Of a DNA stretch of 22,428 nt, positions 429-21,452 are shown piece after piece; the first letter of the stretch is position 1; each line of letters opens with the position of its first letter. The translations under genes and the position numbers were made by a program. The notes under the pieces were generated by a model. It was not told the DNA's origin. It saw only the letters and a list, made by a program, of their open reading frames with translations, and ran no database searches. Source of the stretch: an uncultured Erysipelotrichaceae bacterium. GTDB taxonomy: Bacteria > Bacillota_I > Bacilli_A > Erysipelotrichales > Erysipelotrichaceae. The DNA lies in assembly GCA_964436975.1 (NCBI GenBank), contig CAYTET010000008.1:1-22428 (forward strand), written 5' to 3'.

Positions 429-1220
429 ATGTATTTCACCAAACAATTACATAACGGTTACAATTCCTATATCGATGCAGCTGTTGATGATATGGGAACC
501 CAGATGGATGTCGGCCTGCTGCTGCTGGATGCAGATCAGACCTATCAGATCCATGACGAGCATAAAGAGACCGCCGTTCTGCTGTTTGCCGGTGACGTAG
601 ATATCAATTATGGTGATTTAGCGGTGCGGGCCGTCAGACAGGACTGCTTCCATCAGGAAGCCTACTGCCTGCTGGCCAGCGCTGGCACTTCCATTTCGCT
701 GAAAGCGCATACACACTGTGAAATCTACCTGCAGCAGACAGTCAATGAAAACCACTACGCCCCGGTCATGTATACCCCGGACAAAGTCCAGGTCCAGCAT
801 GCCGGAGCCAACGGCGAGCTGATGGGCTGCATGAGACGGGAAATCAAGACCTTCTTCGATTTTGACAATGCGCCTTTCTCCAATATGGTGTTAGGCGAAG
901 TGCTCAACTATCCCGGCAAGTGGTCATCCTATCCGCCGCATCATCATCCCCAGCCGGAAGTCTATTTCTACCGCTTCGATCATCCGCAGGGCTTCGGGGC
1001 CGGATTTGCCAACGGGCAGATCTACCAGACCGGCCAGAATGGACTTTCCGTCATCAACAACGGCTTCCATTCCCAGGTGGCCGCTCCGGGCTATGCGATG
1101 TGCTATGCCTGGGGAATCCGCCATCTTGACGGCAATCCCTGGCAGAAGACCCGGATTGATGATCCGGAACATGAATGGCTCTGGCAGGCTGATGCCAACG
1201 AGCATATTTATAAAGGCTGA
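429..1220 (+). CDS. iolB: 5-deoxy-glucuronate isomerase (IolB family)
   Basis: 263 aa; cupin-like sequence with [18 protein letters not shown] and [14 protein letters not shown]; located between iolE and iolD. Confidence 0.92.
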
Positions 1221-1240
1221 GCGCCGAAAGGAGAATAAGG

Positions 1241-3169
1241 ATGAAAACTGTCAGACTTACCATGGCCCAGGCCCTGGTCCGTTTTCTGGAAAACCAGTAC
1301 ATTGCCTATGACGGCCAGCAGCACCCCTTTGTTGAGGGTGTCATCATGCTGCCGGGTCACGGCAATGTGGTCGGCTTAGGCCAGGCTTTGAATCAGGAAG
1401 CTCACCGCATGAAGGTGTGGATGGGCAAAAACGAGCAGGGCATGGCTCATACCGCCGTGGCCTTTGCCAAGCAGTGCAAACGTAAAAAGATTATCGCTGT
1501 GACCTCTTCGGTCGGCCCGGGGGCGGCCAATATGGTAACCGCGGCGGCCACCGCCACGGCCAACAACATTCCGGTGCTGATTCTGCCGGGTGATGTCTAT
1601 GCCTGCCGGCAGCCGGATCCGGTGCTGCAGCAGATTGAGCAGACCAATGATCTGTCGCTTTCGACTAATGATGCTTTCAAGGCCGTCTGCCGCTACTGGG
1701 ACCGCATTGTCAGACCCGAGCAGCTGATGAGTGCCATGATTTCCGCCATGCGGACACTGACTGATCCGGCCAATACCGGCGCTGTCTGCATCGCCATTCC
1801 CCAGGATGTCGAAGGGGAAGCCTATGACTATCCGGTCTCTTTCTTTGAAAAGAGAGTGCATCATCTGGCCCGGCGGCTGCCGGAGCCGGAAATCATCGAG
1901 CAGGCGGCTGAAGTTATCCGCAATGCCAAAAAGCCGCTGCTGATCTGCGGCGGCGGGGTCCGCTACAGCGAGGCCCATGCCGAATTCAAGGCTTTTGCCG
2001 AAGCGGCCAATATTCCCTTTGGCGAAACCCAGGCCGGCAAGGGCGCCGTGCTGTACGATCATCCGCTGAATCTGGGCGGCATCGGAGTCACCGGCTGTTC
2101 AGCCGCCAATGACATTGCCAAACAGGCTGATGTCATCATCGGCGTCGGCACCCGGTATACGGATTTCACGACTTCTTCCAAGTGGCTGTTTAAAGACAGC
2201 GCTAAATTTGTTAATATTAATGTATCAGATTTCCAGGCTTTGAAGATGAATGCGGCGGTGGCCGTGGTGGCGGATGCCAAGCGCGCCCTGCCGGAGCTGC
2301 AGAAGGCTCTGCAGGGCTACAAGGCCCCTTATACCACTGAAATCAAAAAAGCCCGGGATAAATGGTTTGCCGAATTAAAGCGGCTTGATAATATCAGTTT
2401 TGGTCCCAAATACGTGCCGGAAGTCAATGATGCCAATGCGGCTTCGGCGTTCCGGTTTGCCAAGGATATGGATGCTACGCTGACCCAGACCACTGTCGTC
2501 GGTCTGATCAACCAGGCCATTGATGCCGAAGATGTCATTATCGGCTCATCCGGCTCGCTGCCGGGCGATTTGCAGAGAATGTGGTGTGCCCGCAGTCTGG
2601 ATTCCTACAATATGGAGTACGGCTATTCCTGCATGGGTTATGAAATCAGCGGCGCCTTGGGCGTCAAATATGCCATCGGCAAGGACCATGATGTCTATGC
2701 CATGGTCGGTGACGGCAGCTTCACCATGCTGCATTCCGAGCTGCTGACAGCGGTGCAGGAGCATGAGAAGATCAATGTCTGTGTCTTCAACAACGCCAGC
2801 TTCGGCTGCATCAATAACCTGCAGGTCGGCCATGGCAATGATTCCTTATGCACGGAAGTCCGCTTCCGCGGTAAGGACGGCAAGCATTCCGGCAAGTTCA
2901 TTCCGGTTGACTTTGCCAAAATAGGCGAGGGCTACGGCTGCAAGTCTTACACCATCCATACCCTGGATGAGATGAAGCAGGCGCTGGCCGATGCCAAAAA
3001 GATTAAAGACCAGCCGGTTGTCTTTGACATCCGGGTTCTGCCCAAGAGCATGACTGAAGGCTACGGGTCCTGGTGGCGGGTCGGCGATACGGAAGTATCC
3101 AAGAACCCGAAGAATGTGGAAGCTTATCAGGATCATCTGAAGCACGTTAAAGACGCGCGCAAATTCTAA
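1241..3169 (+). CDS. iolD: 3D-(3,5/4)-trihydroxycyclohexane-1,2-dione acylhydrolase (ThDP-dependent)
   Basis: 642 aa; [17 protein letters not shown]-terminus, ThDP-binding motif [29 protein letters not shown]; RBS gaaaggagaat upstream. Confidence 0.96.
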
Positions 3170-3189
3170 AAAAAGGGAGATACACAAAT

Positions 3190-4221
3190 ATGGAACATGT
3201 ATTACAGGTCGGTATCGTCGGCTGCGGCGCTATCGGCAAGGATCACTGCCGCCGCATCATTGAAAAAGTGCCCGGAGCCACCGTTGTCGCTGTCAGCGAT
3301 TACAATGCGGCTGCGGCCGATGAAACGGCTGCCAAGTACGGCATTAAATCCTTTGGCAATGACTGCAAGGGCATGATCGCCGATCCGTCAGTTGAAGCGG
3401 TTGTCATCACTTCAATTGATCCGACCCATCATGAGTATGTCATGGAAGTGCTGAAGCATAAGAAGTGGTGCTTCTGTGAAAAACCGCTGTCCCAGAATGC
3501 CAAGGACTGTGAGGAGATCATTGCGGAAGAGCAGAAGATCGGCCACCGCCTTGTCCAGGTCGGCTTTATGAGAAGATATGACCGCGGCTATGCTGAAATG
3601 AAGCGGATTATTGATTCCGGTGCCATCGGCAAGCCGTTAGTCATCAAGGCCTGCCACCGCAATGTTGCCCAGGGTCCCGGATTCAAGACCGAAAACGGCA
3701 TCACCAACGTCGCTATCCATGAACTGGATATCTGCCGCTGGCTGCTGAATGATGAGTATCAGGATGCCCAGGTGGTCAGAGTCCGCCAGTCATCCAATTC
3801 AACCAAGGGCTATGACAACCCGCAGGTTGTCCTGCTGAGAACCAAGAACAACTGCTTCATCGATGTTGAAGTCCAGGTTGCCGACGGCTACGGCTATGAT
3901 ATCCAGTGCGAAGTCGTCTGCGAAAACGGCACTGTCAAGCTGCCTGATCCGATGGCGGTTGTCAGAAGAGCCAGACCCGACCTCACCAAGGAACCGTTTA
4001 TTGAACAGCCGATCATGACCGACTGGAAAGAGCGCTTCATTGAAGCTTATGACATTGAGCTGTGTGACTGGGTTGATGCCATTGCCAAGGGCAAGCTGAC
4101 CGGACCTTCCGTCTGGGACGGCTATGTGGCCTGCGTGGCCGGTGATGCCTGCAATGCATCCCGCGGCACTTCGACTTTCTTACCGGTGAATACTATCGAA
4201 AAACCGGAAATGTATAAGTAG
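3190..4221 (+). CDS. iolG: Gfo/Idh/MocA family oxidoreductase, probable inositol 2-dehydrogenase
   Basis: 343 aa; Rossmann motif VGIVGCGAIGKDHCRRI, EKPLSQNAKDC, HELDICRWL; in the iol cluster. Confidence 0.88.
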   Translation: MEHVLQVGIVGCGAIGKDHCRRIIEKVPGATVVAVSDYNAAAADETAAKYGIKSFGNDCKGMIADPSVEAVVITSIDPTHHEYVMEVLKHKKWCFCEKPLSQNAKDCEEIIAEEQKIGHRLVQVGFMRRYDRGYAEMKRIIDSGAIGKPLVIKACHRNVAQGPGFKTENGITNVAIHELDICRWLLNDEYQDAQVVRVRQSSNSTKGYDNPQVVLLRTKNNCFIDVEVQVADGYGYDIQCEVVCENGTVKLPDPMAVVRRARPDLTKEPFIEQPIMTDWKERFIEAYDIELCDWVDAIAKGKLTGPSVWDGYVACVAGDACNASRGTSTFLPVNTIEKPEMYK

Positions 4222-4287: not shown

Positions 4288-4297
4288 CAAACGTTTG
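4288..4297. promoter_or_regulatory. Candidate LacI/CcpA-like operator CAAACGTTTG
   Basis: Perfect 10-bp palindrome with a central CG, between the iol hairpin and the permease start codon; the 13-mer CTGCAAACGTTTG recurs at 10190-10202. Confidence 0.5.
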
Positions 4298-4330
4298 AAT
4301 GAATTTTCATGGAAAAGGAAAGGAGCAGAA

Positions 4331-9309: not shown

Positions 9310-10275
9310 ATGTTAAAAGTGCATTTTATCAATGTCGCCGAAGGCGATGCAACTTTATTTGAATTCAGTCAGCCTGACGGCATCTACCGTCTGCTGATTG
9401 ATGACGGCCATGCCCAGCTGGAACCGACTTCCGGCTCGGCCCGCAATACCGCCCTGCAGTATCTGCAGAACAGGCAGATCAGCCATCTTGACGCGCTGGT
9501 CATCACCCATCTGCATCTGGATCACTTCGGGGCCACGGCTGCTTTAGCCGAAAACATCCGGATTGATGATGTCTATGCTTCTTATTTCCCCCCCCGGGCC
9601 GATTCCTACATTGAAAATGCGGATCAGCCGGATAAGGAAAGACGCAAGCTGCAGGACTGTCTTGATCTGTGGGCCCGCAACACGGCCGCTTTGCGCCAAG
9701 CCGGCAGCCGGCTGCACACGGTTGACCAGGACACCAATATTGCCACCGCCAACGGTCTGGATATCAGGCTTATCTGCCCGTCGGCGCTAGCCCTGCAGAT
9801 GCAGCGCAAGCTGTTTGATGACATGTATGCCGGCAAGCCGCTTCAAGATAAGAATATCTTCTGGGCATCTAAATCCCGCAATCCGGCTTCGCTGCGTACT
9901 GAAATTGTCTATGCCGGCCGCCGCATTGAAATGGCTGCCGACTGCTACGGGCGGATCTGGGAGAATGAGGAGCTGTTGCCCTGTGACATTCTGAAGATTC
10001 CGCATCATGCCGATGCCAAGTCACTGACCGCTAAGCTGGTGGACAAACTGCATCCGCGCTATGCGGTCGCCACCTGCGGCAAGGATTACATTGAGCGCAA
10101 AGACCGGCCTTCCGCCAAGATGATTGCTTATCTGACGGCGGTGGATACCCGGGTCTATTTTACGGATTCATTCGCTTTTAACGGCCAGCCTGCAAACGTT
10201 TGGCCGGCAGTGATTTTTACGATTGACGACGATGGCACAATAAAAGCCCCCCAGAGTGAAGGGAAGAAAGGATAA
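9310..10275 (+). CDS. MBL-fold hydrolase, soluble ComEC/Rec2-like beta-lactamase domain
   Basis: 321 aa; VITHLHLDHFGA (HxHxDH) and LLPCDILKIPHHAD plus PRYAVATCG, typical of ComEC-type MBL domains. Confidence 0.85.
   Translation: MLKVHFINVAEGDATLFEFSQPDGIYRLLIDDGHAQLEPTSGSARNTALQYLQNRQISHLDALVITHLHLDHFGATAALAENIRIDDVYASYFPPRADSYIENADQPDKERRKLQDCLDLWARNTAALRQAGSRLHTVDQDTNIATANGLDIRLICPSALALQMQRKLFDDMYAGKPLQDKNIFWASKSRNPASLRTEIVYAGRRIEMAADCYGRIWENEELLPCDILKIPHHADAKSLTAKLVDKLHPRYAVATCGKDYIERKDRPSAKMIAYLTAVDTRVYFTDSFAFNGQPANVWPAVIFTIDDDGTIKAPQSEGKKG
10193..10202. promoter_or_regulatory. Candidate operator CAAACGTTTG, second identical copy, inside the 3' end of the MBL gene
   Basis: The 13-mer CTGCAAACGTTTG is identical to that at 4285-4297; about 75 bp upstream of the HAD gene at 10278. 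Confidence 0.35.
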
Positions 10276-10277
10276 CC

Positions 10278-11030
10278 ATGATTACTACGGTGATGTTTGA
10301 TATGGGCGGAACGCTCGAGGATATCTGTGTTGATGAAGCCTCTAAGCAGGCCGCTAACAGGCAGCTTTATAATATTCTGCTGGACTGCGGCATGGCGGCT
10401 GATACCGACCCGGCGGTTCTGCGCCAGCAGACTGAAAAAGGCTGGATCGACTATGGCTGTTACCGCGACAGCGTTGATGTCGAACTGAAGCCGGAGCATA
10501 TCTGGTGCGATTATGTACTGAAGGGCTTTGACGTCGATATGGCCAAAGTCAAGGCTAACAGCGAAAGAATCGCCAAGATGTGGGAATTAACTTATTATCA
10601 CCGTTCGCTCAGACCGCGCGTGGCGGAAATGCTGGAAGGTCTGCAGTCATTAGGCCTGCAGCTGGGCGTCATCAGCAATACGGCCGCCATGTACCAGGTC
10701 TTCTCTTCGCTGCAGGAGTACGGCATCCGCGATTATTTCAAGGATGTGACCCTGTCATCGGTGACCGGACTGCGCAAGCCCTGCCCCGACATCTTTGAAG
10801 TGTCCCTGCACCAGCTGCAGGCTTCAGCGGATGAGTGCTTCTATGTGGGCGATACCATTTCCCGGGATATTGTCGGTTCCAAGCGGGCCGGCTTTGCCGG
10901 AGCCATCCAGATCTATTCCCATCTGACGGCCATGAAGGATATCGCGGATAAATACGAGTTCAAGCCTGACTATGTCGTCGAAGACATCTATGATGTCTAC
11001 CCGCTGCTGAAAAAAGTCTTAGGCAAATAA
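10278..11030 (+). CDS. HAD superfamily hydrolase-like protein (paralog 1)
   Basis: 250 aa; motif I MFDMGGTLED, motif II VISNT, motif III LRKPCPDIF, motif IV YVGDTISRDIVG. Confidence 0.9.
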   Translation: MITTVMFDMGGTLEDICVDEASKQAANRQLYNILLDCGMAADTDPAVLRQQTEKGWIDYGCYRDSVDVELKPEHIWCDYVLKGFDVDMAKVKANSERIAKMWELTYYHRSLRPRVAEMLEGLQSLGLQLGVISNTAAMYQVFSSLQEYGIRDYFKDVTLSSVTGLRKPCPDIFEVSLHQLQASADECFYVGDTISRDIVGSKRAGFAGAIQIYSHLTAMKDIADKYEFKPDYVVEDIYDVYPLLKKVLGK

Positions 11031-11050
11031 AAACCCGTGGTTACGGGTTT
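11031..11050 (-). terminator. Terminator for the LacI-family gene, possibly bidirectional between convergent genes
   Basis: AAACCCGT-ggtt-ACGGGTTT; read leftward on the minus strand the stem is followed by a TTTTTATTT run. It overlaps the regulator's stop codon (11041-11043). Confidence 0.7.
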
Positions 11051-12081
11051 GAAGGCTGATCCGGCTTAGGATAGCCGGCTAACGGAGCGCAGGTCGACCG
11101 CTTCATCAGCGAGGGCATCAGGATCCGGTGGGTATAGCCGTCCAGATTATTCTGGATCTTGTCGACCAGGATATTGACGCATACGGATGCCAGCATTTTG
11201 ACCGGCTGTTCGATAGTGGACAGGTTGATCCGCGGCAGGGAGCTGTCCCGGATATTGTCAAAGCCTAAAAGGGAAAGATCTTCCGGGATCCGCAGCCCGA
11301 CTTCCTCAGCGGCCTGCATGACGCCAAAGGCGTTGGTATCGGTTGAGGCAAAGACGGCCGTGTAATTGCGGGGCTGGCTGAACATCTGCTTGGCCAGCAG
11401 ATAGCCGTATTTAGTGGATGAAGAAGTGAAAGTGTTGTTGCAGTACTGCGGATTCAGGCCTAAATCCTTGCAGGCCGCCGCATAGCCTTCCGCTCTGAGC
11501 TGATGGGTTATGCTGGCCTTGCGCTGGCCGAAGTACAGAATACGGCGGTGGCCCAGGCTGTACAGATATTCCACACCCATGTAGGCCCCGCGGAAATTAT
11601 CCACGGAAACATAGTTTTCCGGAGCATCGCGCATGTTCTCCCCGACAAAGACAGTGGGGACCTGGGCAATCCGCTCGCACAGATTGTCATAGCTTTCCGG
11701 TCCGACCGGCACCAGGATGATGCCGTCGACCTGCCGGCCGACCATCAGTTCAAAAAGGCTGTTCTCCTGCTGGGGGTCATAAGCCGAATTGCACAGAATG
11801 ATATTGTAACCCATGTTGCGGGCCTGCCGGTCGATATGATAGGCCAGTTCGGACATATAGGGGTTGTTGACCCCGGGCAGAATAAGACCCAGCAGCTTGG
11901 TGCTTTTGATGACCATGGCCCGGGCCACGGTATTGACCGTGTAGTTCATGTCCTTGCAGGCGGCAATAATGCGCTGGTAGGCATCCGGACTGACATTGGC
12001 ACTGCCGGACAAGGCCCGTGAGACCGTTGAATAGGATACGCCGGCCTGTTTGGCCACGTCCTTGATGGTAATTCGTTTCAT
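11041..12081 (-). CDS. LacI/GalR-family transcriptional regulator
   Basis: 346 aa from MKRITIKDVAKQAGVSYSTVSRALSGSANVS (classic LacI HTH), followed by a periplasmic-binding-like effector domain; CAGGAG RBS upstream on the minus strand. The longer 373-aa ORF start is less likely. Confidence 0.95.
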   Translation of the reverse strand: MKRITIKDVAKQAGVSYSTVSRALSGSANVSPDAYQRIIAACKDMNYTVNTVARAMVIKSTKLLGLILPGVNNPYMSELAYHIDRQARNMGYNIILCNSAYDPQQENSLFELMVGRQVDGIILVPVGPESYDNLCERIAQVPTVFVGENMRDAPENYVSVDNFRGAYMGVEYLYSLGHRRILYFGQRKASITHQLRAEGYAAACKDLGLNPQYCNNTFTSSSTKYGYLLAKQMFSQPRNYTAVFASTDTNAFGVMQAAEEVGLRIPEDLSLLGFDNIRDSSLPRINLSTIEQPVKMLASVCVNILVDKIQNNLDGYTHRILMPSLMKRSTCAPLAGYPKPDQPSNP

Positions 12082-12283
12082 GATAGCTCCTGTTATGCAA
12101 CAAAATGCACACGATAAACAGATTTTATGACATTTATTTGCATAATACAAGAGCCCCTGCAAATTGTTTCATTGCTCAAAACGGCCCAAAAAGGCCGTAA
12201 ATACCGTATTTTACGCTATAAAACAAGCTTGAAAAAGAACAGTCATGCCATAAATCAGGCATCTATTATGACTGAATTTGATA

Positions 12284-12293
12284 AAAACGTTTT
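12284..12293. promoter_or_regulatory. Candidate LacI/CcpA-like operator AAAACGTTTT
   Basis: Perfect 10-bp palindrome with a central CG in the divergent intergenic region, 30 bp upstream of the first tandem HAD gene; same AAACGTTT core as 4288 and 10193. Confidence 0.5.
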
Positions 12294-12322
12294 CGTTAAA
12301 CCACTTCAGGAGGGGGAAAGTT

Positions 12323-13078
12323 ATGATTAAAGCCGTCTTGTTTGACCTGGGAGGAACCCTGCACACGGCCAGCAGTCCGGCCGGCCGGCCGGAATGGTTT
12401 GCCCGCCGGCTGATTGACCGGCTGGCTGATTATGGCATCATTATTGATGTTTCCACCGCCCAGATGGCCGAAATACTGCATAATAACAGTGAGGAATACA
12501 AGCATGCCAGCGAAATTGATCTCAAGGAACTGCCGGCCGCCCGTATCTGGAGCGAATATTACCTGCGCCAGTTCAACATCAGTGAAAAGACCCTGGCTCC
12601 GATTGCCGAAGAACTGAGTTTTATTTATGATTACGAAAGACCGCTGGTCATGCGCCGGCCCCATCTGAATGAAACGATGAGCGGGTTAGCGGCAATGGGC
12701 ATAAGAATGGGCATGATTTCCAATATCATCTCCCGGTCGGTCGTTTCCCACTTTCTGATGGAATATGACATCGAAAAGTATATGGAGTGCATCGTCATGT
12801 CTTCGGTGACCGGTATCCGCAAGCCTTCGGCTGAAATATTCCGGGTTGCGGAAAAGGACATGGACCTGGCTCCCGAGGAGATGGCCTATGTCGGCGATAC
12901 GATTTCGCGGGATGTGCGCGGCGTGCGCAATGCCGGCTGGAAGATGATGATCCAGATCAACAACCCGGCGATTGCCTTTCGGGATGCCGGTCTGGACAAG
13001 GATGCGTATAAGCCTGACTATATGATCAGCGATCTCAGTGAAGTCGTTGAAATCATCCGTCAGGCCAATCAGCAGTAA
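12323..13078 (+). CDS. HAD superfamily hydrolase-like protein (paralog 2)
   Basis: 251 aa from ATG at 12323 (RBS caggaggggga directly upstream). Motifs LFDLGGTLHT, MISNI, IRKPSAEIF, YVGDTISRDVRG. Confidence 0.9.
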   Translation: MIKAVLFDLGGTLHTASSPAGRPEWFARRLIDRLADYGIIIDVSTAQMAEILHNNSEEYKHASEIDLKELPAARIWSEYYLRQFNISEKTLAPIAEELSFIYDYERPLVMRRPHLNETMSGLAAMGIRMGMISNIISRSVVSHFLMEYDIEKYMECIVMSSVTGIRKPSAEIFRVAEKDMDLAPEEMAYVGDTISRDVRGVRNAGWKMMIQINNPAIAFRDAGLDKDAYKPDYMISDLSEVVEIIRQANQQ

Positions 13079-13114
13079 AAAACATGGCAGCCAGATAAAT
13101 AGGGAGGTAAAACC

Positions 13115-13849
13115 ATGAAAAACAATATTGATACCATTTTCTTCGATGTCGGCAATACCCTGCGTTATGTTGTTCCCGATGCCGCCTTTTCGGCCCAGGC
13201 CGATCAGCAGCTGATGGAGCTGGTCAAGACAACCGCCAGCCACGAAGAGTTTTTTGCCGAACTGAATGCCAACTGGAAGAAATACCGCAAATGGGCCAAG
13301 GACAATCTGCTGGATGTCTCCGAGATGGAACTGTGGATGCAGTTTCTGCTGCCGGAATATGATCCGGCCATCATTGCCCCCAATGCCCCCCGGCTGACCC
13401 GGCTGTGGCGCGACCATGACGGCCGCCGGGTGCCGCATGATGATGTGGATTCTACATTGAGAGAACTGACCAACCGCGGCTACAAACTGGGCATCATTGC
13501 CAACACCATTACCGAAACCGAGATTCCGGACTGGATGTGCCATGACCAGGTTGCCGACTGTTTCAAGACGGTCATTCTGTCCTCCAAGGTCAGACTGCGC
13601 AAGCCTGATCCGGCCATCTATCTGCTGGGCGCCCGCTGCATCGATTCCAAACCGGAAGACTGCGCCTATGTGGGCGACAATGCCGTCCGGGATGTGGACG
13701 GGGCGGTTGATTCCGGCTATGGCGCCATGATCCTGTTTGAGTTTGAAGGTGTGGCCGTTGACCGGGACGGGGTATCACCCAATCACCAGCCGGATTACAA
13801 GATCGGCCATATCGGCGATCTGCTCGATCTGTTCGGGCCCAGAGGTTAA
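13115..13849 (+). CDS. HAD superfamily hydrolase-like protein (paralog 3)
   Basis: 244 aa; motifs FFDVGNTLRY, IIANT, LRKPDPAIY, YVGDNAVRDVDG; RBS gggaggtaaaacc. Confidence 0.9.
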   Translation: MKNNIDTIFFDVGNTLRYVVPDAAFSAQADQQLMELVKTTASHEEFFAELNANWKKYRKWAKDNLLDVSEMELWMQFLLPEYDPAIIAPNAPRLTRLWRDHDGRRVPHDDVDSTLRELTNRGYKLGIIANTITETEIPDWMCHDQVADCFKTVILSSKVRLRKPDPAIYLLGARCIDSKPEDCAYVGDNAVRDVDGAVDSGYGAMILFEFEGVAVDRDGVSPNHQPDYKIGHIGDLLDLFGPRG

Positions 13850-13852
13850 ATA

Positions 13853-14575
13853 ATGAAAGACATCAAGGGTGTTTTCTTTGATTTAGGCGGGACGCTGCGG
13901 ATTGCCCAGGAAGTTCCCGAACATATTCAGAAAGCCAAAAGGGCCATGGCTGATCTGGCCGGCGTTACTGATGAAAATGCCTTTTTGGAGATGATTGATA
14001 AACGCTATGAGCCCTACCGCAAATGGGCCATGACGGAATATAAGGAATGCGGGGATTTTGATCTGTGGCATATCTGGCTGCTGCCGGACATGCCGGAAGA
14101 AGAACTGCGGCCGGTCTGCCACCAGCTGACTTACCAGTACCGCCAGGTCAAAGGCCTGCGCCATCTGGTCACCCATGGTCTTGAAGTCATCAAAACGCTG
14201 CACCAGCGCGGCTACAAGCTGGGCATCATTTCCAATCTGATCGGTGAAAACGAAGTCGCCGACTGGCTCAGGGATGATGATCTGGCCCAATATTTTGATT
14301 CGGTAGTCCTTTCATCCATCTGCCATATCCGCAAGCCGGATCCGGCTATCTATGATATCGGCTGTGCCGAATTAGGTCTGAAGCCGGGCCAGTGCGCTTC
14401 GGTGGCCGACAATCTGAGCCGGGATTTTACCGGGGCTAAGGCGGCCGGCATCGGCGTCAATATTCTGTTCATCAGTCCGGAAAAGCTGGCCGGCAAAACG
14501 ATAACTGAAGAAAACCGCCCGGACATTATCATCAATGATTTCCTTGAATTGCTGGACCTGCCTTTTCTGCAGTAA
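13853..14575 (+). CDS. HAD superfamily hydrolase-like protein (paralog 4)
   Basis: 240 aa; motifs FFDLGGTLRI, IISNL, IRKPDPAIY, SVADNLSRDFTG; starts 3 bp after paralog 3. Confidence 0.9.
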   Translation: MKDIKGVFFDLGGTLRIAQEVPEHIQKAKRAMADLAGVTDENAFLEMIDKRYEPYRKWAMTEYKECGDFDLWHIWLLPDMPEEELRPVCHQLTYQYRQVKGLRHLVTHGLEVIKTLHQRGYKLGIISNLIGENEVADWLRDDDLAQYFDSVVLSSICHIRKPDPAIYDIGCAELGLKPGQCASVADNLSRDFTGAKAAGIGVNILFISPEKLAGKTITEENRPDIIINDFLELLDLPFLQ

Positions 14576-14589
14576 GGAGAAGAGATAAA

Positions 14590-15318
14590 ATGGCTGATAT
14601 AAACACGCTGTTCTTCGATTTAGGCGATACCTTCCGCGTCATCCGTCATGATGATGAATACTCCCGGGCGGCCCGGGCGCTGATCTGTGAAAAACTGGGG
14701 GTTACCGAAGATCCGGATAAGTTCTATCATGAAGTCATCGAGCCGCGCTATGACAAATACCGGCAGTGGGCTTTGACTTATTACTGTGAAGCCCCGGAAA
14801 AAGTGCTCTGGACCCGCTGGCTGGCGTATGATTATCCTAAGGATGTCGTCGAGGCGGCGGCTTCCGAGCTGACTTTTGCCTACCGGCGCACCAAAGGGGA
14901 GCGCGTGGTTACCGAAGGCGGCATTGAAACGGTTAAGGAGCTGTTTGCCCGCGGCTATAAGCTGGGCATCATCTCCGATCTGGTCGGTGTCCATGAGGTT
15001 GACCAGTGGCTTGACCACGACCAGCTGCGTCCTTATTTCAAGACGGTGCAGCAGTCCTCGCTCTGTCTGATCCGCAAGCCCCATCCGGCGATTTACTATT
15101 ATGCCATGAATGAGATCGGCTCATCCGGGGAGCAGTGCTGCTTTGTCGGCGATAACCTTAACCGCGATATCATCGGGGCCAAGGCGGCCGGCATCGGCAT
15201 GACCATCGGGGTGCGCTATCCGGGCAAAAAAGAGCAGGAAATCACCCCGGAAAATAAGCCTGATCAGTTTATAACGCATTTTTCGCAGCTGCTGGATATT
15301 TTCCCAGCGCGCGGTTAG
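14590..15318 (+). CDS. HAD superfamily hydrolase-like protein (paralog 5)
   Basis: 242 aa; motifs FFDLGDTFRV, IISDL, IRKPHPAIY, FVGDNLNRDIIG; RBS aaggagaag. Confidence 0.9.
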   Translation: MADINTLFFDLGDTFRVIRHDDEYSRAARALICEKLGVTEDPDKFYHEVIEPRYDKYRQWALTYYCEAPEKVLWTRWLAYDYPKDVVEAAASELTFAYRRTKGERVVTEGGIETVKELFARGYKLGIISDLVGVHEVDQWLDHDQLRPYFKTVQQSSLCLIRKPHPAIYYYAMNEIGSSGEQCCFVGDNLNRDIIGAKAAGIGMTIGVRYPGKKEQEITPENKPDQFITHFSQLLDIFPARG

Positions 15319-15332
15319 GAGGCAGATAGGAT

Positions 15333-16898
15333 ATGGAAAAAGAAATGAATCATGGCGGTGCGGCCCTGGCCAAAGCCGTCCGTAAAGCTTATGAGCAGAA
15401 TCAGACGGATTACTCACTGGCCCCGCTGTGTCTGGTTGATGAAAACGACCAGCCGGTGGGCAAAATAAAAGACGGCGATGCGGTTATCTTCTGCTGCCGG
15501 CGGGGCGAAAGGGAAGTTGAACTGACCGAAGCCTTCACCCAGCCTGATTTTGACAAGTTTGACCGGCCGTATCTGAGTCAGCTGCAGTTCGGCATTCTGA
15601 CGATGTATCATGAAAAATTCAAGAATCTGCCGATTGCCTTTGCCCCGGAGAAGGTGGTCATGCCGCTGGCCCAGGTCATAGCCCAGGCCGGCCTGACCCA
15701 GTTTCACTGCTCGGAATCCGAAAAGTTTGCCCATGTAACCTTCTTCTTCAACGGCGGCTATAACCAGCCCTTTGAAAAAGAGACGGATACCTGTGTGCCT
15801 TCACCCAAGGGCGTGCCGTTTGACACCGTGCCGGAATTAAGCCTGCCGGCCGTCGCCGCCAAGGTGGAAGAAGCCGTTGATACCGGCTATGATTTCATTC
15901 TGACTAACTTTGCCAACGGCGATGTTATCGGCCATACTTCCAACAGCGATGCCAAACTGCTGGCCGCCGCGGCCATCAGCAAGTATGTTGATAAAGTCGC
16001 CCATTATGCGCAGGATCACGGCTATTTGGTTGCCATCACGGCTGACCACGGCAACATTGAAACCCTGCGGACAGAAGCCGGCAAGCCGCATGTGGCCCAT
16101 ACCTGCAATCTGGTGCCCTTTATCGTGCTGGATCCGCAGCACCGGGAGATCAAGCTGCGGGACGGCTCCCTGAAGGATGTTGCCCCGACAGTGCTGTCGG
16201 TGCTGGGTCTGGATGCCCCGGCGGAAATGAGCGGACAGTCCCTGATTGAAACGGCTGATATCCATAACAAGAAAATGATACTGATTATTCTGGATGGCTG
16301 GGGTCTGGGCAGCCAGGATGACAATGACGCCATCTATCTGGCGGATACACCGGGCTGGGACAAACTGATGGCGGATTATCCGCATTCCAGCTTAGCCGCC
16401 AGCGGCCTGTATGTCGGCCTGCAGGACGGCAAGCCGGGCAACTCCGAAGCCGGCCACTGCAATATGGGCGCCGGCCGGGTCGTCGAGCAGGATGATGTCC
16501 GCATGGACAATGCCATCAAAGACGGCTCTTTCAAGACCAATCCGGTTTTCCTGAAGCTGATCGACCATGCCAAACAGTGCGGCAGCCTGCATCTGATTGC
16601 GCTGCTGACCGAAAAGTCCAGCCACGGCTGCATCGCTTATCCGCTGATGCTGGCGGAAATGGCTAAAGAAGTTCCCCATGTCTATTTCCACATCATCTTT
16701 GACGGCCGCAGCACCGAACCGGGCAGTGCCCCGGCGCTGCTGGAAAAGCTGGATGGCCAACTGGCCCAGATTGGAACCGGCCTGGTGGTTGACGGCATCG
16801 GCCGCGGCATTATTCTGGACCGCGACGGCAACTATGCCCGCATTGAAACGGGCTACCGGGAACTGACCGAAGGTAAGGGGATCCCTTATCATTTATAG
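15333..16898 (+). CDS. Circularly permuted cofactor-independent phosphoglycerate mutase-like protein (alkaline phosphatase superfamily)
   Basis: 521 aa. Residues ~11-305 match the C-terminal part of canonical GpmI (GKIKDGDAVIF, SESEKFAHVTFFFNGG, NFANGDVIGHT, ITADHGN, VAHTCNLVPFI, LKDVAPTVLSVLG, EMSGQSLI). Residues 315-521 match the canonical N-terminal part (MILIILDGWGL, GKPGNSEAGHCNMGAGRVV, IKDGSF, HIIFDGRS, GRGIILDRD). Confidence 0.88.
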   Translation: MEKEMNHGGAALAKAVRKAYEQNQTDYSLAPLCLVDENDQPVGKIKDGDAVIFCCRRGEREVELTEAFTQPDFDKFDRPYLSQLQFGILTMYHEKFKNLPIAFAPEKVVMPLAQVIAQAGLTQFHCSESEKFAHVTFFFNGGYNQPFEKETDTCVPSPKGVPFDTVPELSLPAVAAKVEEAVDTGYDFILTNFANGDVIGHTSNSDAKLLAAAAISKYVDKVAHYAQDHGYLVAITADHGNIETLRTEAGKPHVAHTCNLVPFIVLDPQHREIKLRDGSLKDVAPTVLSVLGLDAPAEMSGQSLIETADIHNKKMILIILDGWGLGSQDDNDAIYLADTPGWDKLMADYPHSSLAASGLYVGLQDGKPGNSEAGHCNMGAGRVVEQDDVRMDNAIKDGSFKTNPVFLKLIDHAKQCGSLHLIALLTEKSSHGCIAYPLMLAEMAKEVPHVYFHIIFDGRSTEPGSAPALLEKLDGQLAQIGTGLVVDGIGRGIILDRDGNYARIETGYRELTEGKGIPYHL

Positions 16899-16922
16899 AA
16901 GTGAGCAAAGGAGAATATAATC

Positions 16923-17645
16923 ATGAATAGTGCAGTAGATTTATCCAGTCTGACCCTGACGCCCTGGGAGATTATCATCCGGCTGGCGGGGGCCATGGTA
17001 ATAGGGGCCATCATCGGCACCGAGCGGGAATACACCCACCGGCCGGCCGGCATGCGGACCCATATGCTGGTGGCGCTGGGATCATGCGCCGTAATGGTGA
17101 CCAGCCAGCTGATGTTTGTGCAGTATCACGCTTTCGGGGCTTCCCCGGATCCGGCCCGGCTGCCGGCGCAGGTTATCGCCGGGGTTGGCTTTTTAGGCGC
17201 CGGCACGATTTTAAGGGACGGCACCTCCATCAAGGGTCTGACCACGGCGGCCAGTGTCTGGGCGGTGGCCTGTCTGGGCATTGCCATCGGCGCCGGCTAT
17301 TATATTCTGGCGGTGGCCGGTACGGCCTGCATGCTGATAACGCTGACTTTCTTTGAGTGGCTGCAGAAAAAGCTGATCCACAGCCGCTATGAGACCTATC
17401 TGTTTCTGGTGCAGTCAACCAATGTCGTGGTGACCTTAGCCCAGATCAACAAGCTGGCCATCGAAGTCGAAGCTTCCGTCAGCAGCATCCAGGTCAATGA
17501 AATAAACGATAACGGCAACTACAGCATCAACTTCCGGACTAATTTTTCCGGCCGGCATGCCTCCACGCGGATGCAGCAGTTCTTAATGGATCTGACCAGT
17601 GATGAATGCACGGTCTCCATTAAATCGGAGCAGATCAGACTGTAG
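16923..17645 (+). CDS. MgtC/SapB family membrane protein
   Basis: 240 aa; AGAMVIGAIIGTEREYTHRPAGMRTHMLVALGSCAVM, GVGFLGAGTILRDGTSIKGLTTAASVWAVACLGIAIG, plus a C-terminal ACT-like region. Confidence 0.92.
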   Translation: MNSAVDLSSLTLTPWEIIIRLAGAMVIGAIIGTEREYTHRPAGMRTHMLVALGSCAVMVTSQLMFVQYHAFGASPDPARLPAQVIAGVGFLGAGTILRDGTSIKGLTTAASVWAVACLGIAIGAGYYILAVAGTACMLITLTFFEWLQKKLIHSRYETYLFLVQSTNVVVTLAQINKLAIEVEASVSSIQVNEINDNGNYSINFRTNFSGRHASTRMQQFLMDLTSDECTVSIKSEQIRL

Positions 17646-17664
17646 CCTGTTTATCCGATAATTC

Positions 17665-17713
17665 AGGCAAAGATAACGGCTCTGGGCCAGCCGGCTGTCT
17701 TTGCCTTGTTTTA
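17665..17713 (+). terminator. Rho-independent terminator ending the HAD/iPGM/MgtC unit
   Basis: AGGCAAAGA (17665-17673) pairs with TCTTTGCCT (17698-17706), inner stem CGGCT/AGCCG, then TGTTTTAT. Confidence 0.75.
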
Positions 17714-17737
17714 TAACAAGAAAAGGAGATTTCCATT

Positions 17738-18622
17738 ATGAAGCAGCAATATGATTTAATGCTTGTCGGACCGGCTTCCCGGGACGAAAATATCGACTAT
17801 ACCGGGGCTGTCGACAAGTCCATCGGCGGGGCCGTGACGTTCTGCTCGGCTTCAGCCCAGGCGGCCAGCGGCAGTGTTTTTGCGGCAGTTGTCGCCGCCC
17901 CCAATGAGCCGGATGTCATGGATTCCATTATTCTGGATGATGATGACAAGATGCTGATTCCGTCTTCGGTAACCACCTCGATCCGCAACCAGTACTTCAC
18001 GGCGGACCGGGAAAGACGCGAGTCCAAGTGCATTGCCCAGTCTGATCCGGTCACCCCGGATAAGATTCCGGCCGGCCATTTCAAGATGTATCATTTAGCC
18101 GGACTTTTATACGGCGATTTCCCCAACGAGCTTATTGTTGATCTGGCATCCAAGGGCCAGCTGGCCGGGGATGCCCAGGGCTTTTTAAGACACAATGAAA
18201 ACGGGGCGATGGTTTTCCATGACTGGGCCGACAAAAAGGAAATGCTGAAGCACTTTGCCTTTCTGAAAACAGACGCTTTGGAAGCCCTGACTCTGACCGG
18301 CTTTGAAGACCGGGCCAAGGCAGCTGAACAGCTGTACCAGTGGGGGGCTAAAGAAGTTATGGTTTCCCATAACAGCGAGATAATGGTCTATGATGGCAAC
18401 AAGGTCTATACCTGCCCGATCAAAGCCCGCAACCTGTCCGGCCGGACCGGCCGGGGTGACACGACGACCGGGGCTTATCTGGCCCGCCGGCTGGACGGTG
18501 ATGACGTTGAAACAGCGCTGCTGTATGCGACCGCCTGTGTTTCTTTGAAGATGGAAAAAGTCGGCGTGTTCAGCCACAGCCGGCAGGATGTCTACGATTA
18601 TATTGCCCAGTTTTACCGCTGA
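17738..18622 (+). CDS. PfkB-family carbohydrate/nucleoside kinase
   Basis: 294 aa; GGAVTFCSASAQAA and C-terminal PfkB-like motif LSGRTGRGDTTTGAYLARRL; RBS aaaaggag. Confidence 0.82.
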   Translation: MKQQYDLMLVGPASRDENIDYTGAVDKSIGGAVTFCSASAQAASGSVFAAVVAAPNEPDVMDSIILDDDDKMLIPSSVTTSIRNQYFTADRERRESKCIAQSDPVTPDKIPAGHFKMYHLAGLLYGDFPNELIVDLASKGQLAGDAQGFLRHNENGAMVFHDWADKKEMLKHFAFLKTDALEALTLTGFEDRAKAAEQLYQWGAKEVMVSHNSEIMVYDGNKVYTCPIKARNLSGRTGRGDTTTGAYLARRLDGDDVETALLYATACVSLKMEKVGVFSHSRQDVYDYIAQFYR

Positions 18623-18632
18623 GACTAAAAAG

Positions 18633-18656
18633 GCCGTTGCTGAAACGGCTTTTTTT
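18633..18656 (+). terminator. Rho-independent terminator
   Basis: GCCGTT-gctga-AACGGC followed by TTTTTTT, 10 bp after the pfkB-type stop codon. Confidence 0.85.
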
Positions 18657-18774
18657 ATGATTGGTCGGCCGGATCGGTTATAGCCCCAAATCCGTTAACC
18701 GGCGCTGCGCTGTCGTCTTTAACCATTTTGTTAAGATCCGCAGTTGTAAACCTGTGATGCAGGCGTGGGCCGTA

Positions 18775-18783
18775 TGCTATAAT
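18775..18783 (+). promoter_or_regulatory. Extended -10 promoter element TGCTATAAT
   Basis: TGnTATAAT directly upstream of gagagacaaacaggaggaataaataATG; no strong -35 seen. Confidence 0.5.
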
Positions 18784-18808
18784 GAGAGACAAACAGGAGG
18801 AATAAATA

Positions 18809-20196
18809 ATGAAGGCGTGGGAATTGGAACGTCAGAATATGGACCACAGTGTACCGGTTCATATGGCCGACAACAACGAAGAAATATGGGAAGAGCAGAG
18901 CAATGGGCCGGAGCAGGCTCAGGATGCCACCATTAAGAATTACTGGGCCAGCAAGGTCCCGGGCTCACGGGCTTCCGAATCGATTATCATCGCCGCTGTC
19001 CAGGCCATGGAAAACCGCGGCTATTCTGTTAAAAACAGCGAAGACATGTGGCTGGCCGGACTGAGTGCGGTGGCCGGCGAAGACGTTGTCAGCATGCACA
19101 AAAACTACTATAAGATCATGCAGGCCTGCCTGCAGGCGGAAAAGGATGAAAGTTCGCCGTACTGGCAGCAGCATTTCTATGATACTTTTGAAGAATACGA
19201 AAAGGCCGTCAAATTTCCCCAGGCCCGCCCGGTTGACATGGGCAATATGCTGGTTGACAAGATCGAAGCCGGCTGGCTGGGCCAGATTATCGGCGGAGCC
19301 TACGGCACCTGTCTGGAAGGGTATACCACCGACAACATCATGAAAGCCTATCCGCATCTGGATATCTACCAGCGCAAGCCGAATACCTATAACGATGACA
19401 TTACTTATGAACTGGCCCTGCTGCTGGCTTATGAGGAGAACGGCAAAGCAACGACATCACGCGACATTGCCGACGAATGGGTCAGCCGGATTGCCTTTGG
19501 CTGGTCAGCCGAGGATATGGCGCTGCGCAATCTGCGCTGCGGTATGATGCCGCCGGAGTCCGGCCGTTTCAACAACCCTTATTATGAGTGGATCGGGGCC
19601 CAGATGCGCGGGGCGGTTTTGGGCCAGCTTTATCCGGGTGATCCGTACAATGCGGCCAAAGCGGCCTGGCAGGACGGCATTATCTCCCATGCCCGCAACG
19701 GTGTCTTGGGCGAAGTGTTCAATGCCATCATGGTGGCCATGGCTTTCTACCAGAATGATCTAGACAGCTGGTCAAGGATGCAGTGGCCCTGATGCCGGCC
19801 GACAGCGAATACGGCCAGGTCGTCCGGTTTGCTTTGGAGCAGTGTGAAAACAGCGCCGACTGGCTGACCGCCTGGCGGCCCTGCGAAAAGAAGTACGAGC
19901 GCTATAACTGGGTGCATGCCTATCCCAATGCCTGCGCCGAAGTGGTGGCCTTATGGTTCTGCCAGGATGATTTCACCAAACTGCTGGTTATTTCCGGCGG
20001 CTGCGGCCAGGACGTTGACTGCAATGCGGCTCAGATTGCTACCGTATGGGCAACCCGCAAGGGCAAACAGGCTATCCCGGCCTACTGGACCGAGCCTATC
20101 GGCGACCATCTGGATACCTATGTCCGCGGCTTAAAGCAGCTGAGCATCCGCCAGCTGGCCGTCCGGACGGCGGCTGTGGCAAACCACCTGAAATAA
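18809..20196 (+). pseudogene. ADP-ribosylglycohydrolase family protein, frameshifted into two ORFs (18809-19792 and 19783-20196)
   Basis: First ORF has AGWLGQIIGGAYGTCLEG, YNDDITYELALLLAYEENG, RGAVLGQLYPGDP. The continuation (LVKDAVALMPADSEYGQVVRFAL...HAYPNACAEVVALW...ISGGCGQDVDCNAAQIATVWA) is in a different frame; together they make one ARH-like domain. Confidence 0.75.
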
Positions 20197-20238
20197 AAGG
20201 GTGAAAGCGAATACAAAAAATAGACCCATTTACTTGAA

Positions 20239-20267
20239 TTGACAGGGTCGGTATTGTATTATTATTT
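20239..20267 (+). promoter_or_regulatory. Candidate promoter for the BMP lipoprotein gene
   Basis: TTGACA at 20239-20244, then an AT-rich TATTATTATTT -10 region at a 15-17 bp spacing. Confidence 0.5.
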
Positions 20268-20294
20268 AAGCAAACTACTCAAGAGGGAGGAAAC

Positions 20295-21452
20295 ATGAAA
20301 AAACTTTTGAAGATTGCTCTTTGCGCACTGCTGGTGTTCGGCATGGCCGCTTGCGGCACCACCGGCGGTGACACAAAAGATGATCGTATCCGTCTGGTAT
20401 ACATCATCAACGGAACCTTAGGTGATAAGTCATTCTTTGATTCCGGAAAAGAAGGTCTGGATCTTATTGATGCCAAGTATGGCGATAAGGTCTATACCGA
20501 GTATCGTGAGCTGACCTATGACGATTCGACATGGGAACAGAAGGCTCAGGATATTGTGGCTGAAGGCTGGGATATCGTTATCGCCGGCACTTATGACATG
20601 CTGGGCTATTTTGAAGGCAGCAATGGCAATGAGGGCTTAGCTACCAAGTATCCCGATACCAAGTTCTGGTTCTTTGATGAATCTTGGGATTTCACGGCTT
20701 ATCCTAATACCAACGTTTATGGCATGCTGTTCAGCCAGAACGAAGGTTCCTTCGCTGTCGGTGTCATCGCTGCGATGACCACCAAGACCAACAAGGTTGC
20801 CTTTGAAGGCGGTATGGATAACACGGTTCTGGATGACTTCTTCGTTGGCTTCTATGAGGGCGTCAAGTATGAAGCTGCTCAGTTAGGCAAAGAAATCACG
20901 GTCACTCTGGACTGGATGAATTCATTCTCTGATTCCACAGTCGGCAAGGACAAAGCCGGTGCTCTGTACAACCAGGGCTACGATGTTGTCTTCGCCTGCG
21001 GCGGCTCAGCCGGTTTAGGCGTTTTCGATGCTGCTGTTGAATACAATACGGCTAATCCGAATAACCCGGTTTATGTCATCGGTGTTGATGGCGACCAGGG
21101 TGCTTATTTCGGTTCATTATCTGATGATCTCAGCAAGTCCAAAGCCAGCTGCACTGTTACTTCCATGCAGAAGAACGTTAACCAGGGCTTCCTGTATGCC
21201 ATGGGCAAACATCTGGATAACACCCTGCCTTACGGCCAGGTTGAACATCTGGGCTTGAACGGCGGCTTCGTTTCCGCTTCCGTCAATGATTACACCAAAG
21301 CTATTCTGAGCAATGACCAGATCACATCCGTTAACGCTATTGTTGATCAGATCGTTGCTGGTACCCTGACTGTTGATTCCATGTTTGGCGATAAGGCCTT
21401 AACACAGGATCAGTTCAAACAGTTTGGCGCAGGCACTTGGGTTCAGAAGTAG
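20295..21452 (+). CDS. BMP/PnrA-family ABC transporter substrate-binding lipoprotein (nucleoside-type)
   Basis: 385 aa; lipobox MKKLLKIALCALLVFGMAACG, LVYIINGTLGDKSFFDSGKEGL, GMLFSQNEGSFAVGVIAAMTTKTNKVAFEGGMD, VDGDQG. Confidence 0.9.
   Translation: MKKLLKIALCALLVFGMAACGTTGGDTKDDRIRLVYIINGTLGDKSFFDSGKEGLDLIDAKYGDKVYTEYRELTYDDSTWEQKAQDIVAEGWDIVIAGTYDMLGYFEGSNGNEGLATKYPDTKFWFFDESWDFTAYPNTNVYGMLFSQNEGSFAVGVIAAMTTKTNKVAFEGGMDNTVLDDFFVGFYEGVKYEAAQLGKEITVTLDWMNSFSDSTVGKDKAGALYNQGYDVVFACGGSAGLGVFDAAVEYNTANPNNPVYVIGVDGDQGAYFGSLSDDLSKSKASCTVTSMQKNVNQGFLYAMGKHLDNTLPYGQVEHLGLNGGFVSASVNDYTKAILSNDQITSVNAIVDQIVAGTLTVDSMFGDKALTQDQFKQFGAGTWVQK

Follow-up and report, generated by a model that had tools for sequence, protein, structure and literature searches.

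A circularly permuted relative of cofactor-independent phosphoglycerate mutase in a conserved bacterial gene cluster

A 22,428-nucleotide stretch of DNA from an uncultured Erysipelotrichaceae bacterium (GenBank assembly GCA_964436975.1, contig CAYTET010000008.1, positions 1 to 22,428 of the forward strand; the whole stretch is called the window here) contains an open reading frame (ORF) at 15333..16898 in which the two halves of a cofactor-independent phosphoglycerate mutase (iPGM) are encoded in swapped order. This raises the question of whether such a protein is a genuine enzyme with a circularly permuted chain and, if it is, whether the interconversion of 2-phosphoglycerate and 3-phosphoglycerate (2PG/3PG) is its task. 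We conclude that the ORF almost certainly specifies a true circular permutant of the iPGM fold in a single chain. The permuted family is large and apparently undescribed, and its branch to which the window protein belongs, called type I, is probably not a housekeeping 2PG/3PG mutase.

We denote the alkaline-phosphatase-like metal domain as A and the phosphotransferase domain as B, and number reference residues after the Geobacillus stearothermophilus iPGM (Gs; 1EJJ). Residues were mapped by un-permuting the window sequence and aligning it with 1EJJ and 119 canonical iPGMs. The canonical order is A1(1-76)-B1(77-~212)-B2(~213-310)-A2(311-511), whereas the window protein, a circularly permuted iPGM (cp-iPGM), reads B2-A2-linker-A1-B1; the linear architecture A1-B-A2, with the transferase domain within the phosphatase domain, is absent from it. 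The gene and its parts are as follows.

15333..16898, plus strand: type I cp-iPGM gene of the circularly permuted iPGM family, 521 amino acids plus stop, ATG start (ORF and translation, HMM and phmmer matches)
15318..15322, plus strand: Shine-Dalgarno-like GGAGG, 10 nt 5' of the ATG (direct reading of the sequence)
15333..15647, plus strand: segment B2, residues 1-105, second half of the phosphotransferase domain, equivalent to Gs ~213-310 (alignment to 1EJJ)
15648..16247, plus strand: segment A2, residues 106-305, C-terminal part of the phosphatase domain, equivalent to Gs 311-509 (alignment to 1EJJ)
16248..16274, plus strand: linker ETADIHNKK, residues 306-314, bridging the ancestral C- and N-termini (translation)
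16275..16487, plus strand: segment A1, residues 315-385, N-terminal part of the phosphatase domain, equivalent to Gs 6-76 (alignment to 1EJJ)
16488..16895, plus strand: segment B1, residues 386-521, first half of the phosphotransferase domain, equivalent to Gs 77-212 (alignment to 1EJJ)

Searches with the whole protein recovered both halves of the enzyme. Using phmmer against the PDB, query residues 312-519 matched residues 3-213 of 1EJJ (i-Evalue 4e-40) and query residues 16-305 matched residues 220-509 (i-Evalue 9e-53), with a whole-sequence E of 1.3e-95, well outside what chance would give. The iPGM model TIGR01307 was matched with 465.4 bits (cutoff 330.65) in two stretches in swapped order, the stricter model NF003897 scored 378.5 bits and thus below its cutoff of 862, and the Pfam families Metalloenzyme (PF01676) and iPGM_N (PF06415) were each found in two pieces. 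Because the protein has the length of a single enzyme and contains both halves once, the order is swapped and nothing is duplicated. Segment B2 carries R56 (Gs F260), R57 (R261) and R60 (R264) within the type I motif CRRGERE. Segment A2 carries K131 and the metal ligands D197, H201, D238, H239 and H256, and has EMSGQSLI at its C-terminal end. In segment A1, D321 (Gs D12) lies in MILIILDGWG and the nucleophile S371 (Gs S62) in GNSEAGH; segment B1 contributes H431 (H123) in KSSHGC, R459-S460 (R153-D154), R491 (R185) and R497 (R191).

AlphaFold2, run with a 78-sequence type I alignment, gave a confident model (mean predicted local distance difference test score, pLDDT, 92.8; predicted template modelling score 0.81), with a pLDDT of 96-98 over the linker and the strand that follows it. 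Foldseek comparison of this model with the PDB returned 22 significant matches, all of them iPGM, the best being 1O99, 1O98 and 1EJJ (E ~5e-19). The sequential alignment comprised 296 columns of the B2-A2 part only (template modelling score 0.49, root mean square deviation 3.9), a partial coverage that is expected when a sequential aligner meets a permuted chain. In the un-permuted alignment, the new termini fall in a surface loop at about 1EJJ residues 209-217. Both A/B crossovers, that is, the inter-domain hinges, are kept, with domain A contiguous and domain B split between the termini. The permutation therefore swaps the inserted and the host domain, the phosphatase domain being effectively inserted in a split transferase domain, and the hinge mechanics are not rewired.

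These results bear on a preliminary description made from the letters of this DNA, which had proposed that one ORF encodes a complete iPGM, circularly permuted with its breakpoint inside the phosphotransferase domain. The phmmer halves, the family-wide conservation described below and the AlphaFold2 model agree with this. The proposed restart at MILIILDGWG was placed correctly (Met315, base 16275, after a 9-residue linker), and the 521 residues do make up one full enzyme, with no segment present twice. The suggestion that the permutation would restructure domain connectivity was right in that the continuous domain flips from B to A, but the change is smaller than implied, given that both hinges persist. 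Its proposed comparison with homologues and prediction of the fold agree with the permutation, the order being collinear across at least 240 listed clusters and the significant Foldseek matches all being iPGM, and the assembly artefact that it had considered was not borne out.

The identical 521-residue protein occurs on 19 contigs, which come from independent ENA and Logan assemblies of different samples, always with like neighbours, and three of these contigs (L001-L003) are 99.9% identical to the window. The best 120 database clusters share 67-81% identity with the query and are collinear over 97-100% of it; a profile of divergent members added at least 120 further clusters at 50-61% identity and 96-100% coverage (81% for one truncated protein), some of them on contigs 1-2.75 Mb long. 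When 1.84 billion cluster representatives were searched, collinear relatives matching in a single stretch (representatives of 50%-identity clusters) extended down to 36% identity, whereas canonical iPGMs always matched in two stretches. Among species-representative genomes, the carriers are metagenome-assembled genomes labelled Oscillospiraceae, Lachnospiraceae, Clostridia, Christensenella, Faecousia and Ca. Limivicinus, from rumen, goat gut and mouse gut. Carriers in Chloroflexia and Anaerolineaceae, at 57-58% identity, place the family in two phyla. The junction has the same form in 19/19 permuted representatives, namely ...EMTGxSL(I), a linker of 8-12 residues and (K/R)xxLIILDGWG, with no stop.

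It is extremely improbable that the swapped order is an artefact, be it through misassembly or through fusion of two gene fragments, or that the gene is a decaying pseudogene. Some related proteins of 719-727 residues (P0328-P0332), from contigs with a coverage of 2-3x, do look mosaic or chimeric, which would fit an artefact. However, the presence of one identical protein in independent assemblies, the hundreds of diverged homologues that share the order and have an unbroken linker and unchanging catalytic residues, the occurrence in two phyla and the confident structural model all speak against it; the 19 contigs, the collinear homologue clusters and the intact junctions together rule out an assembly artefact or gene fusion.

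The mosaic proteins also touch on the origin of the permutation. They are encoded after tpiA (L033:1316-3487 and L034:1336-3519) and have the order A1-B1-B2-A2-A1'-B1', i.e. a complete enzyme in canonical order plus an extra half with type I motifs. This order matches the intermediate predicted for a permutation by tandem duplication and truncation, yet the proteins may be recombinants or products of chimeric assembly. The five proteins have identical extra C-terminal halves but N-terminal parts that differ by ~45%, and the DNA of the two loci is ~60% identical up to mid-gene and 99-100% identical from there on. Given the identical 3' parts, the divergent N-terminal parts and the low coverage, we downgraded them as evidence for such an intermediate.

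In public records these proteins go under 'phosphoglycerate mutase (2,3-diphosphoglycerate-independent)' or under 'alkaline phosphatase family protein', and NCBIfam has no dedicated model for a permuted iPGM. The preliminary description had not been aware of any account of such an enzyme, and our full-text search, covering open-access papers, likewise found none; a corresponding search of the open-access phytate and inositol literature found no description of the operon discussed below.

If the fold is that of iPGM, is the active site too? The seven metal-site and nucleophile residues (D12, S62, D403, H407, D444, H445 and H462) and five substrate-binding residues (H123, R191, R261, R264 and K336) are present in 19/19 permuted representatives and invariant in 78 type I sequences. 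The residues named in the preliminary description have matching equivalents in the un-permuted alignment, both for the metal ligands and nucleophile (D321=D12, S371=S62, D197=D403, H201=H407, D238=D444, H239=H445, H256=H462) and for the substrate contacts (R57=R261, R60=R264, K131=K336, R491=R185, R497=R191). Canonical iPGM reportedly contacts phosphoglycerate through H123, R153, D154, R185, R191, R261, R264 and K336, as Jedrzejas et al. are said to have described in 2000. The window protein keeps 7/8 of these contacts. The exception, which the preliminary description did not include, is D154, replaced by Ser460, and the neighbouring pocket motifs also deviate from the canonical ones in a systematic way. 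Among canonical sequences, 118/119 carry D154; at this position the 19 permuted representatives have S in 11, G in three, D in four and a gap in one, and all 14 with Ser or Gly are type I. The type I set comprises 16 of the 19 representatives, the query included, and type II the remaining P0188, P0192 and P0239. The motifs that distinguish type I are given here by 1EJJ position.

1EJJ 121-124: canonical GVHS, type I SSHG
1EJJ 152-154: canonical GRD, type I GR(S/G)
1EJJ 184-191: canonical GRYYxMDR, type I GRGxxLDR
1EJJ 259-265: canonical NFRPDRA, type I CRRGERE

The type I substitutions relative to canonical enzymes are thus D154->S, Y186->G, M189->L, F260->R and T334->S, with a net change in pocket charge of about +2. 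Across the 78 type I sequences, which share 51-73% identity, R56, R57, G58, R60, S429, S430, H431, G432, R459, S460, T461, G490, R491 and R497 are invariant. Judged from these residues, the type I pocket is more basic than the canonical one and probably roomier.

Type I is monophyletic (60/60 neighbour-joining bootstraps). Type II has its breakpoint in the same loop as type I (Gs 209-217), keeps the canonical pocket motifs GVHS, GRD, GRYYAMDRD and NFRxDRA, and nests among canonical enzymes. A clade of type I plus type II appeared in 1/60 bootstraps, so a single origin of all permuted iPGMs has no neighbour-joining support; it is still possible in view of the shared breakpoint loop and of possible long-branch effects. 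The type II protein P0239 (L037:8001-9626) is encoded directly 3' of pgi in a housekeeping region, its start overlapping the end of pgi. With its canonical pocket, this protein suggests that the permuted topology does not stand in the way of a normal part in glycolysis. The type II gene P0188 (L035:4041-5585) is preceded by genes for an 860-residue MBL/anti-Pycsar-like protein and a 325-residue protein of no assigned family, and has no HAD or kinase neighbours in that locus.

The surroundings of the type I gene are of a different kind. In the window it stands in a cluster composed as follows.

429-1220, plus strand: IolB-like (match to the IolB model below cutoff)
1241-3169, plus strand: IolD (TIGR04377, 896 bits; cutoff 715)
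3190-4221, plus strand: IolG-like (match to the IolG model below cutoff)
4295-6157, plus strand: fused ABC permease, ModB/PhnU2/CysT-like (family search)
6183-7301, plus strand: ABC ATPase (family search)
7401-8639, plus strand: putative ABC binding protein, 412 amino acids (cluster conservation)
8716-9306, plus strand: 196-residue protein of no family (cluster conservation)
9310-10275, plus strand: MBL-fold protein (family search)
10278-11030, plus strand: HAD0, the fifth HAD (family search)
11041..12162, minus strand: divergent LacI-family regulator (same position in related loci)
12278-13078, plus strand: HAD1 (HAD-superfamily paralogue)
13115-13849, plus strand: HAD2 (HAD-superfamily paralogue)
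13853-14575, plus strand: HAD3 (HAD-superfamily paralogue)
14590-15318, plus strand: HAD4 (HAD-superfamily paralogue)
16923..17645, plus strand: MgtC-family membrane protein, 24 nt 3' of cp-iPGM (present in many related loci)
17738..18622, plus strand: ribokinase-family (PfkB) kinase of TM0415 type with RTGRGD motif (PDB match 1VK4/5YSP, E 2e-37)

The GGAGG in front of cp-iPGM shares the last base of the HAD4 stop codon, and the cp-iPGM ATG lies 14 nt past that stop, so that HAD4 and cp-iPGM are tightly packed in one operon. A promoter and terminator scan of 10900-20400 gave no informative operon boundaries. The iol genes of myo-inositol catabolism (429..4221), among which iolD is a true equivalog, lie directly 5' of the ABC transporter genes. 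For the LacI regulator, the longest ORF, from a TTG, has 373 codons, gene callers on identical contigs give 346 residues, and translation probably begins downstream of that TTG. Beyond the kinase gene, an ADP-ribosylglycohydrolase gene (18809..19792) lacks one A at 19761 relative to L001-L003; the resulting frameshift leaves 327 instead of 462 residues and reflects either an error of sequencing or a pseudogene specific to this strain.

The kinase can be compared with TM0415, a myo-inositol kinase dependent on pyrophosphate (PPi) with the donor-signature residues K171, F221, R229, R232 and M266, an RxGRGD motif and the acceptor-site residues I76, N78, S89 and L116 (PMC5931981). In the window kinase, K171, R229, R232 and M266 are identical to TM0415 (1VK4/5YSP), F221 is conservatively replaced by I, and all four acceptor-site residues are identical; every Bacillota locus in which the kinase gene is included has RTGRGD. 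By these signature residues the window kinase is predicted to be PPi-dependent and of TM0415 type. The HADs have in common a motif I, F-D-x-G-x-T (FDMGGTL, FDLGGTL, FDVGNTL, FDLGGTL and FDLGDTF among the five), that is D-x-G and not D-x-D. The D-x-G is kept in their orthologues in Bacillota and Chloroflexota, motifs II-IV are present, and the best HAD model, TIGR02253, was matched below its cutoff. Because D-x-G lacks the Asp+2 that serves HAD phosphatases and mutases as general acid/base, these proteins need not be ordinary phosphatases. The fused permease is closest to ModB, PhnU2, CysT and PhnV, i.e. to oxyanion and phosphonate types. Neither the 412-residue nor the 196-residue protein had a Pfam or NCBIfam family or a PDB match. 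The former is probably an ABC binding protein, since its orthologue in locus L007 matches SBP_bac_1, and the latter, which has a sub-threshold Bax1-I match, is possibly a membrane protein.

We surveyed ~30 type I loci in Bacillota and Chloroflexota, each with up to ±10 kb of flank. Every Bacillota locus with sufficient flank shows the order LacI (divergent), HAD1-HAD2-HAD3-HAD4, cp-iPGM, in some loci then MgtC and/or a membrane H+-pyrophosphatase (H+-PPase), and PfkB; across loci, each of the HADs has its own orthologue at the equal position. The H+-PPase, inside or beside the cluster in 14/30 loci and next to the PfkB kinase, is not in the window. A nearby module in both phyla consists of the ABC importer (fused permease, ATPase and binding protein), the 196-residue protein, a fifth HAD and sometimes the MBL-fold protein. 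None of the ~30 loci has gap, pgk, tpi, eno or pgi as a neighbour. The Chloroflexota loci (L031:8505-21587, L032:8467-15251) encode LacI, two HADs, cp-iPGM, ApgM, two PRK-like kinases, RpiR and the orthologous ABC importer. Here ApgM is bona fide (NF003160, 562 bits; cutoff 468) and a separate gene beside cp-iPGM. The PRK/uridine-kinase-like proteins are ~400 residues long with an extra N-terminal region of ~180 residues; a fused double HAD is also encoded there. The divergent side carries IolM-like, GFO/IDH/MocA, AP_endonuc_2, FAD/FeS oxidase and UxaE (L032) genes, and the Chloroflexota clusters contain glycolate-oxidase-like genes. The deep type I member P0185 (L041:2290-5082, 44% identity) is flanked by genes for a PhnS2-like ABC binding protein and an AP_endonuc_2 protein that weakly resembles CbiR phosphodiesterase and endonuclease IV, with no HAD array on its short contig.

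What, then, might the type I enzyme do? With moderate confidence, we favour a specialised, non-glycolytic mutase acting on an organophosphate. From the kept metal site, serine and hinges, the iPGM mechanism would be expected: phosphate would pass to Ser371, the substrate would re-orient in the closed cleft, and phosphate would return to a neighbouring hydroxyl. 2PG/3PG may not be the physiological substrate, considering the remodelled pocket and the non-glycolytic gene context, which comprises a LacI-controlled cluster with 4-5 HADs, MgtC, a TM0415-type kinase, often H+-PPase and a PhnU2/ModB-like importer, with iolD in the window. A pathway-specific phosphomutase could reposition phosphate on an organophosphate that is imported or phosphorylated from PPi, and its substrate would be an intermediate of the pathway that exceeds 3PG in negative charge or in size. 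An inositol phosphate would be the lead candidate and a phosphorylated sugar acid the alternative; a sugar acid derived from inositol catabolism would account for the kept carboxylate-binding arginines. It is possible, although we put this forward tentatively, that type I is a phosphomutase for an inositol phosphate or a related sugar-acid phosphate in an undescribed PPi-coupled pathway, together with the importer, the D-x-G HADs, the kinase, the H+-PPase and MgtC, a pathway that would be shared by Clostridia of gut and rumen and by Chloroflexota. Several points weigh against a non-glycolytic function of this kind. The kept substrate contacts include the carboxylate-holding Arg and TIGR01307 is passed (465 bits; cutoff 330.65), which makes 2PG/3PG or another carboxylate-bearing phosphoester plausible. 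The D-x-G HADs may not be phosphatases, which weakens a model of stepwise dephosphorylation in which they would act as ordinary phosphatases. The iol adjacency was seen only where the flank sufficed, in the window and, with different inositol-type genes, in Chloroflexota. Finally, it is uncertain which acceptor TM0415-type kinases really use (Km, the Michaelis constant, is 12 mM for inositol; PMC5931981).

The same kept contacts and TIGR01307 score, along with the conservation of all catalytic residues, would also be explained by a functional 2PG/3PG mutase whose chain is merely permuted, either a glycolytic enzyme or a phosphoglycerate mutase for operon-derived phosphoglycerate. The type II protein beside pgi fits this explanation, and the glycolate-oxidase-like and ApgM genes in the Chloroflexota clusters hint at C3-acid chemistry. 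We nevertheless consider it rather unlikely, because D154, nearly universal in canonical enzymes, is Ser or Gly in 14/19 permuted representatives, the extra Arg for F260 and the Gly for Y186 are invariant within the close family, the gene is strictly linked to four HADs under LacI without a glycolytic neighbour, the score for NF003897 is far below cutoff (378; cutoff 862), and the adjoining ApgM of Chloroflexota would make a second phosphoglycerate mutase redundant. Another explanation is a phosphohydrolase or an intermolecular phosphotransferase instead of a mutase, which might for instance hand phosphate from an organophosphate to water or a different acceptor, providing a further phosphate-removing step alongside the HADs. 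iPGM belongs by its fold to the alkaline-phosphatase superfamily and works through a phosphoserine intermediate, a widened pocket without D154 could let in water or a further substrate, and the operon is rich in proteins of phosphoryl transfer (HADs, PPi-dependent kinase, H+-PPase). Yet the transferase domain and the Arg/His/Lys clamp are under strong purifying selection, being invariant in the 78 sequences, and both cleft-closure hinges are kept; in iPGM, this clamp retains the dephosphorylated intermediate for re-phosphorylation. A hydrolase or intermolecular transferase is therefore improbable, and a specialised organophosphate mutase continues to be our preferred reading of type I.

Irrespective of its substrate, the protein represents a natural circular permutation in a domain-inserted two-domain enzyme, in which the roles of inserted and host domain are inverted and the hinges kept. 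At least two lineages with the same breakpoint make it useful for studies of protein evolution and for the engineering of iPGM, itself a target for drugs against parasites and bacteria. Automatic annotation has given the name 'phosphoglycerate mutase' to hundreds to thousands of database entries; should type I be something else, metabolic reconstructions of many gut and rumen Clostridia and of Chloroflexota falsely credit a glycolytic step or miss a pathway. Plant-diet guts and soils are rich in phytate and inositol phosphates, and the conserved operon points to an unstudied organophosphate or inositol route in these habitats. The genes around cp-iPGM may realistically form a new pathway. They may also hint at what PPi-dependent ribokinase-family kinases do in the cell, a matter not yet settled (PMC5931981), and if a PPi-coupled inositol-phosphate pathway exists, the orphan PPi-dependent inositol kinases would gain a physiological context.

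Compared with known systems, the window protein is nearest to canonical GpmI/iPGM (TIGR01307; 1EJJ, 1O98), with ~37-40% identity over both halves and the same two domains and hinges. It has the same seven metal and nucleophile residues as well as H123, R153, R185, R191, R261, R264 and K336, and because these residues and hinges are shared, a phosphoserine mutase mechanism would be expected alike. Unlike canonical GpmI, type I has the order B2-A2-A1-B1, a pocket altered by D154->S, F260->R, Y186->G, GVHS->SSHG and M189->L, and is never found in a gap-pgk-tpi-eno context. Type II permuted iPGMs resemble type I in order and breakpoint loop but have a canonical pocket and do not cluster with it by neighbour joining. 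ApgM (TIGR00306) and DeoB have the metal core of the alkaline-phosphatase superfamily in common with the window protein, giving weak matches in the A2 segment only; they differ in their cap or transferase domains and are not permuted. The Thermotoga maritima myo-inositol cluster TM0411-TM0416 includes, with TM0415, a kinase like that of the window (RxGRGD, 4/5 donor-signature and four acceptor-site residues), and in both cases inositol-catabolic genes are adjacent to the kinase cluster. The T. maritima cluster is not known to contain an iPGM-like gene, a HAD array, MgtC or an H+-PPase. A precedent for a permuted phosphomutase is PGM3/AGM1 in the superfamily of alpha-D-phosphohexomutases, in one lineage of which a circular permutation moves the phosphoserine loop in sequence and not in three-dimensional space (PMC5570346). 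That enzyme has an unrelated fold, and only ~60 residues within one of its domains are permuted, whereas in the iPGM family described here the permutation exchanges the roles of two whole domains.

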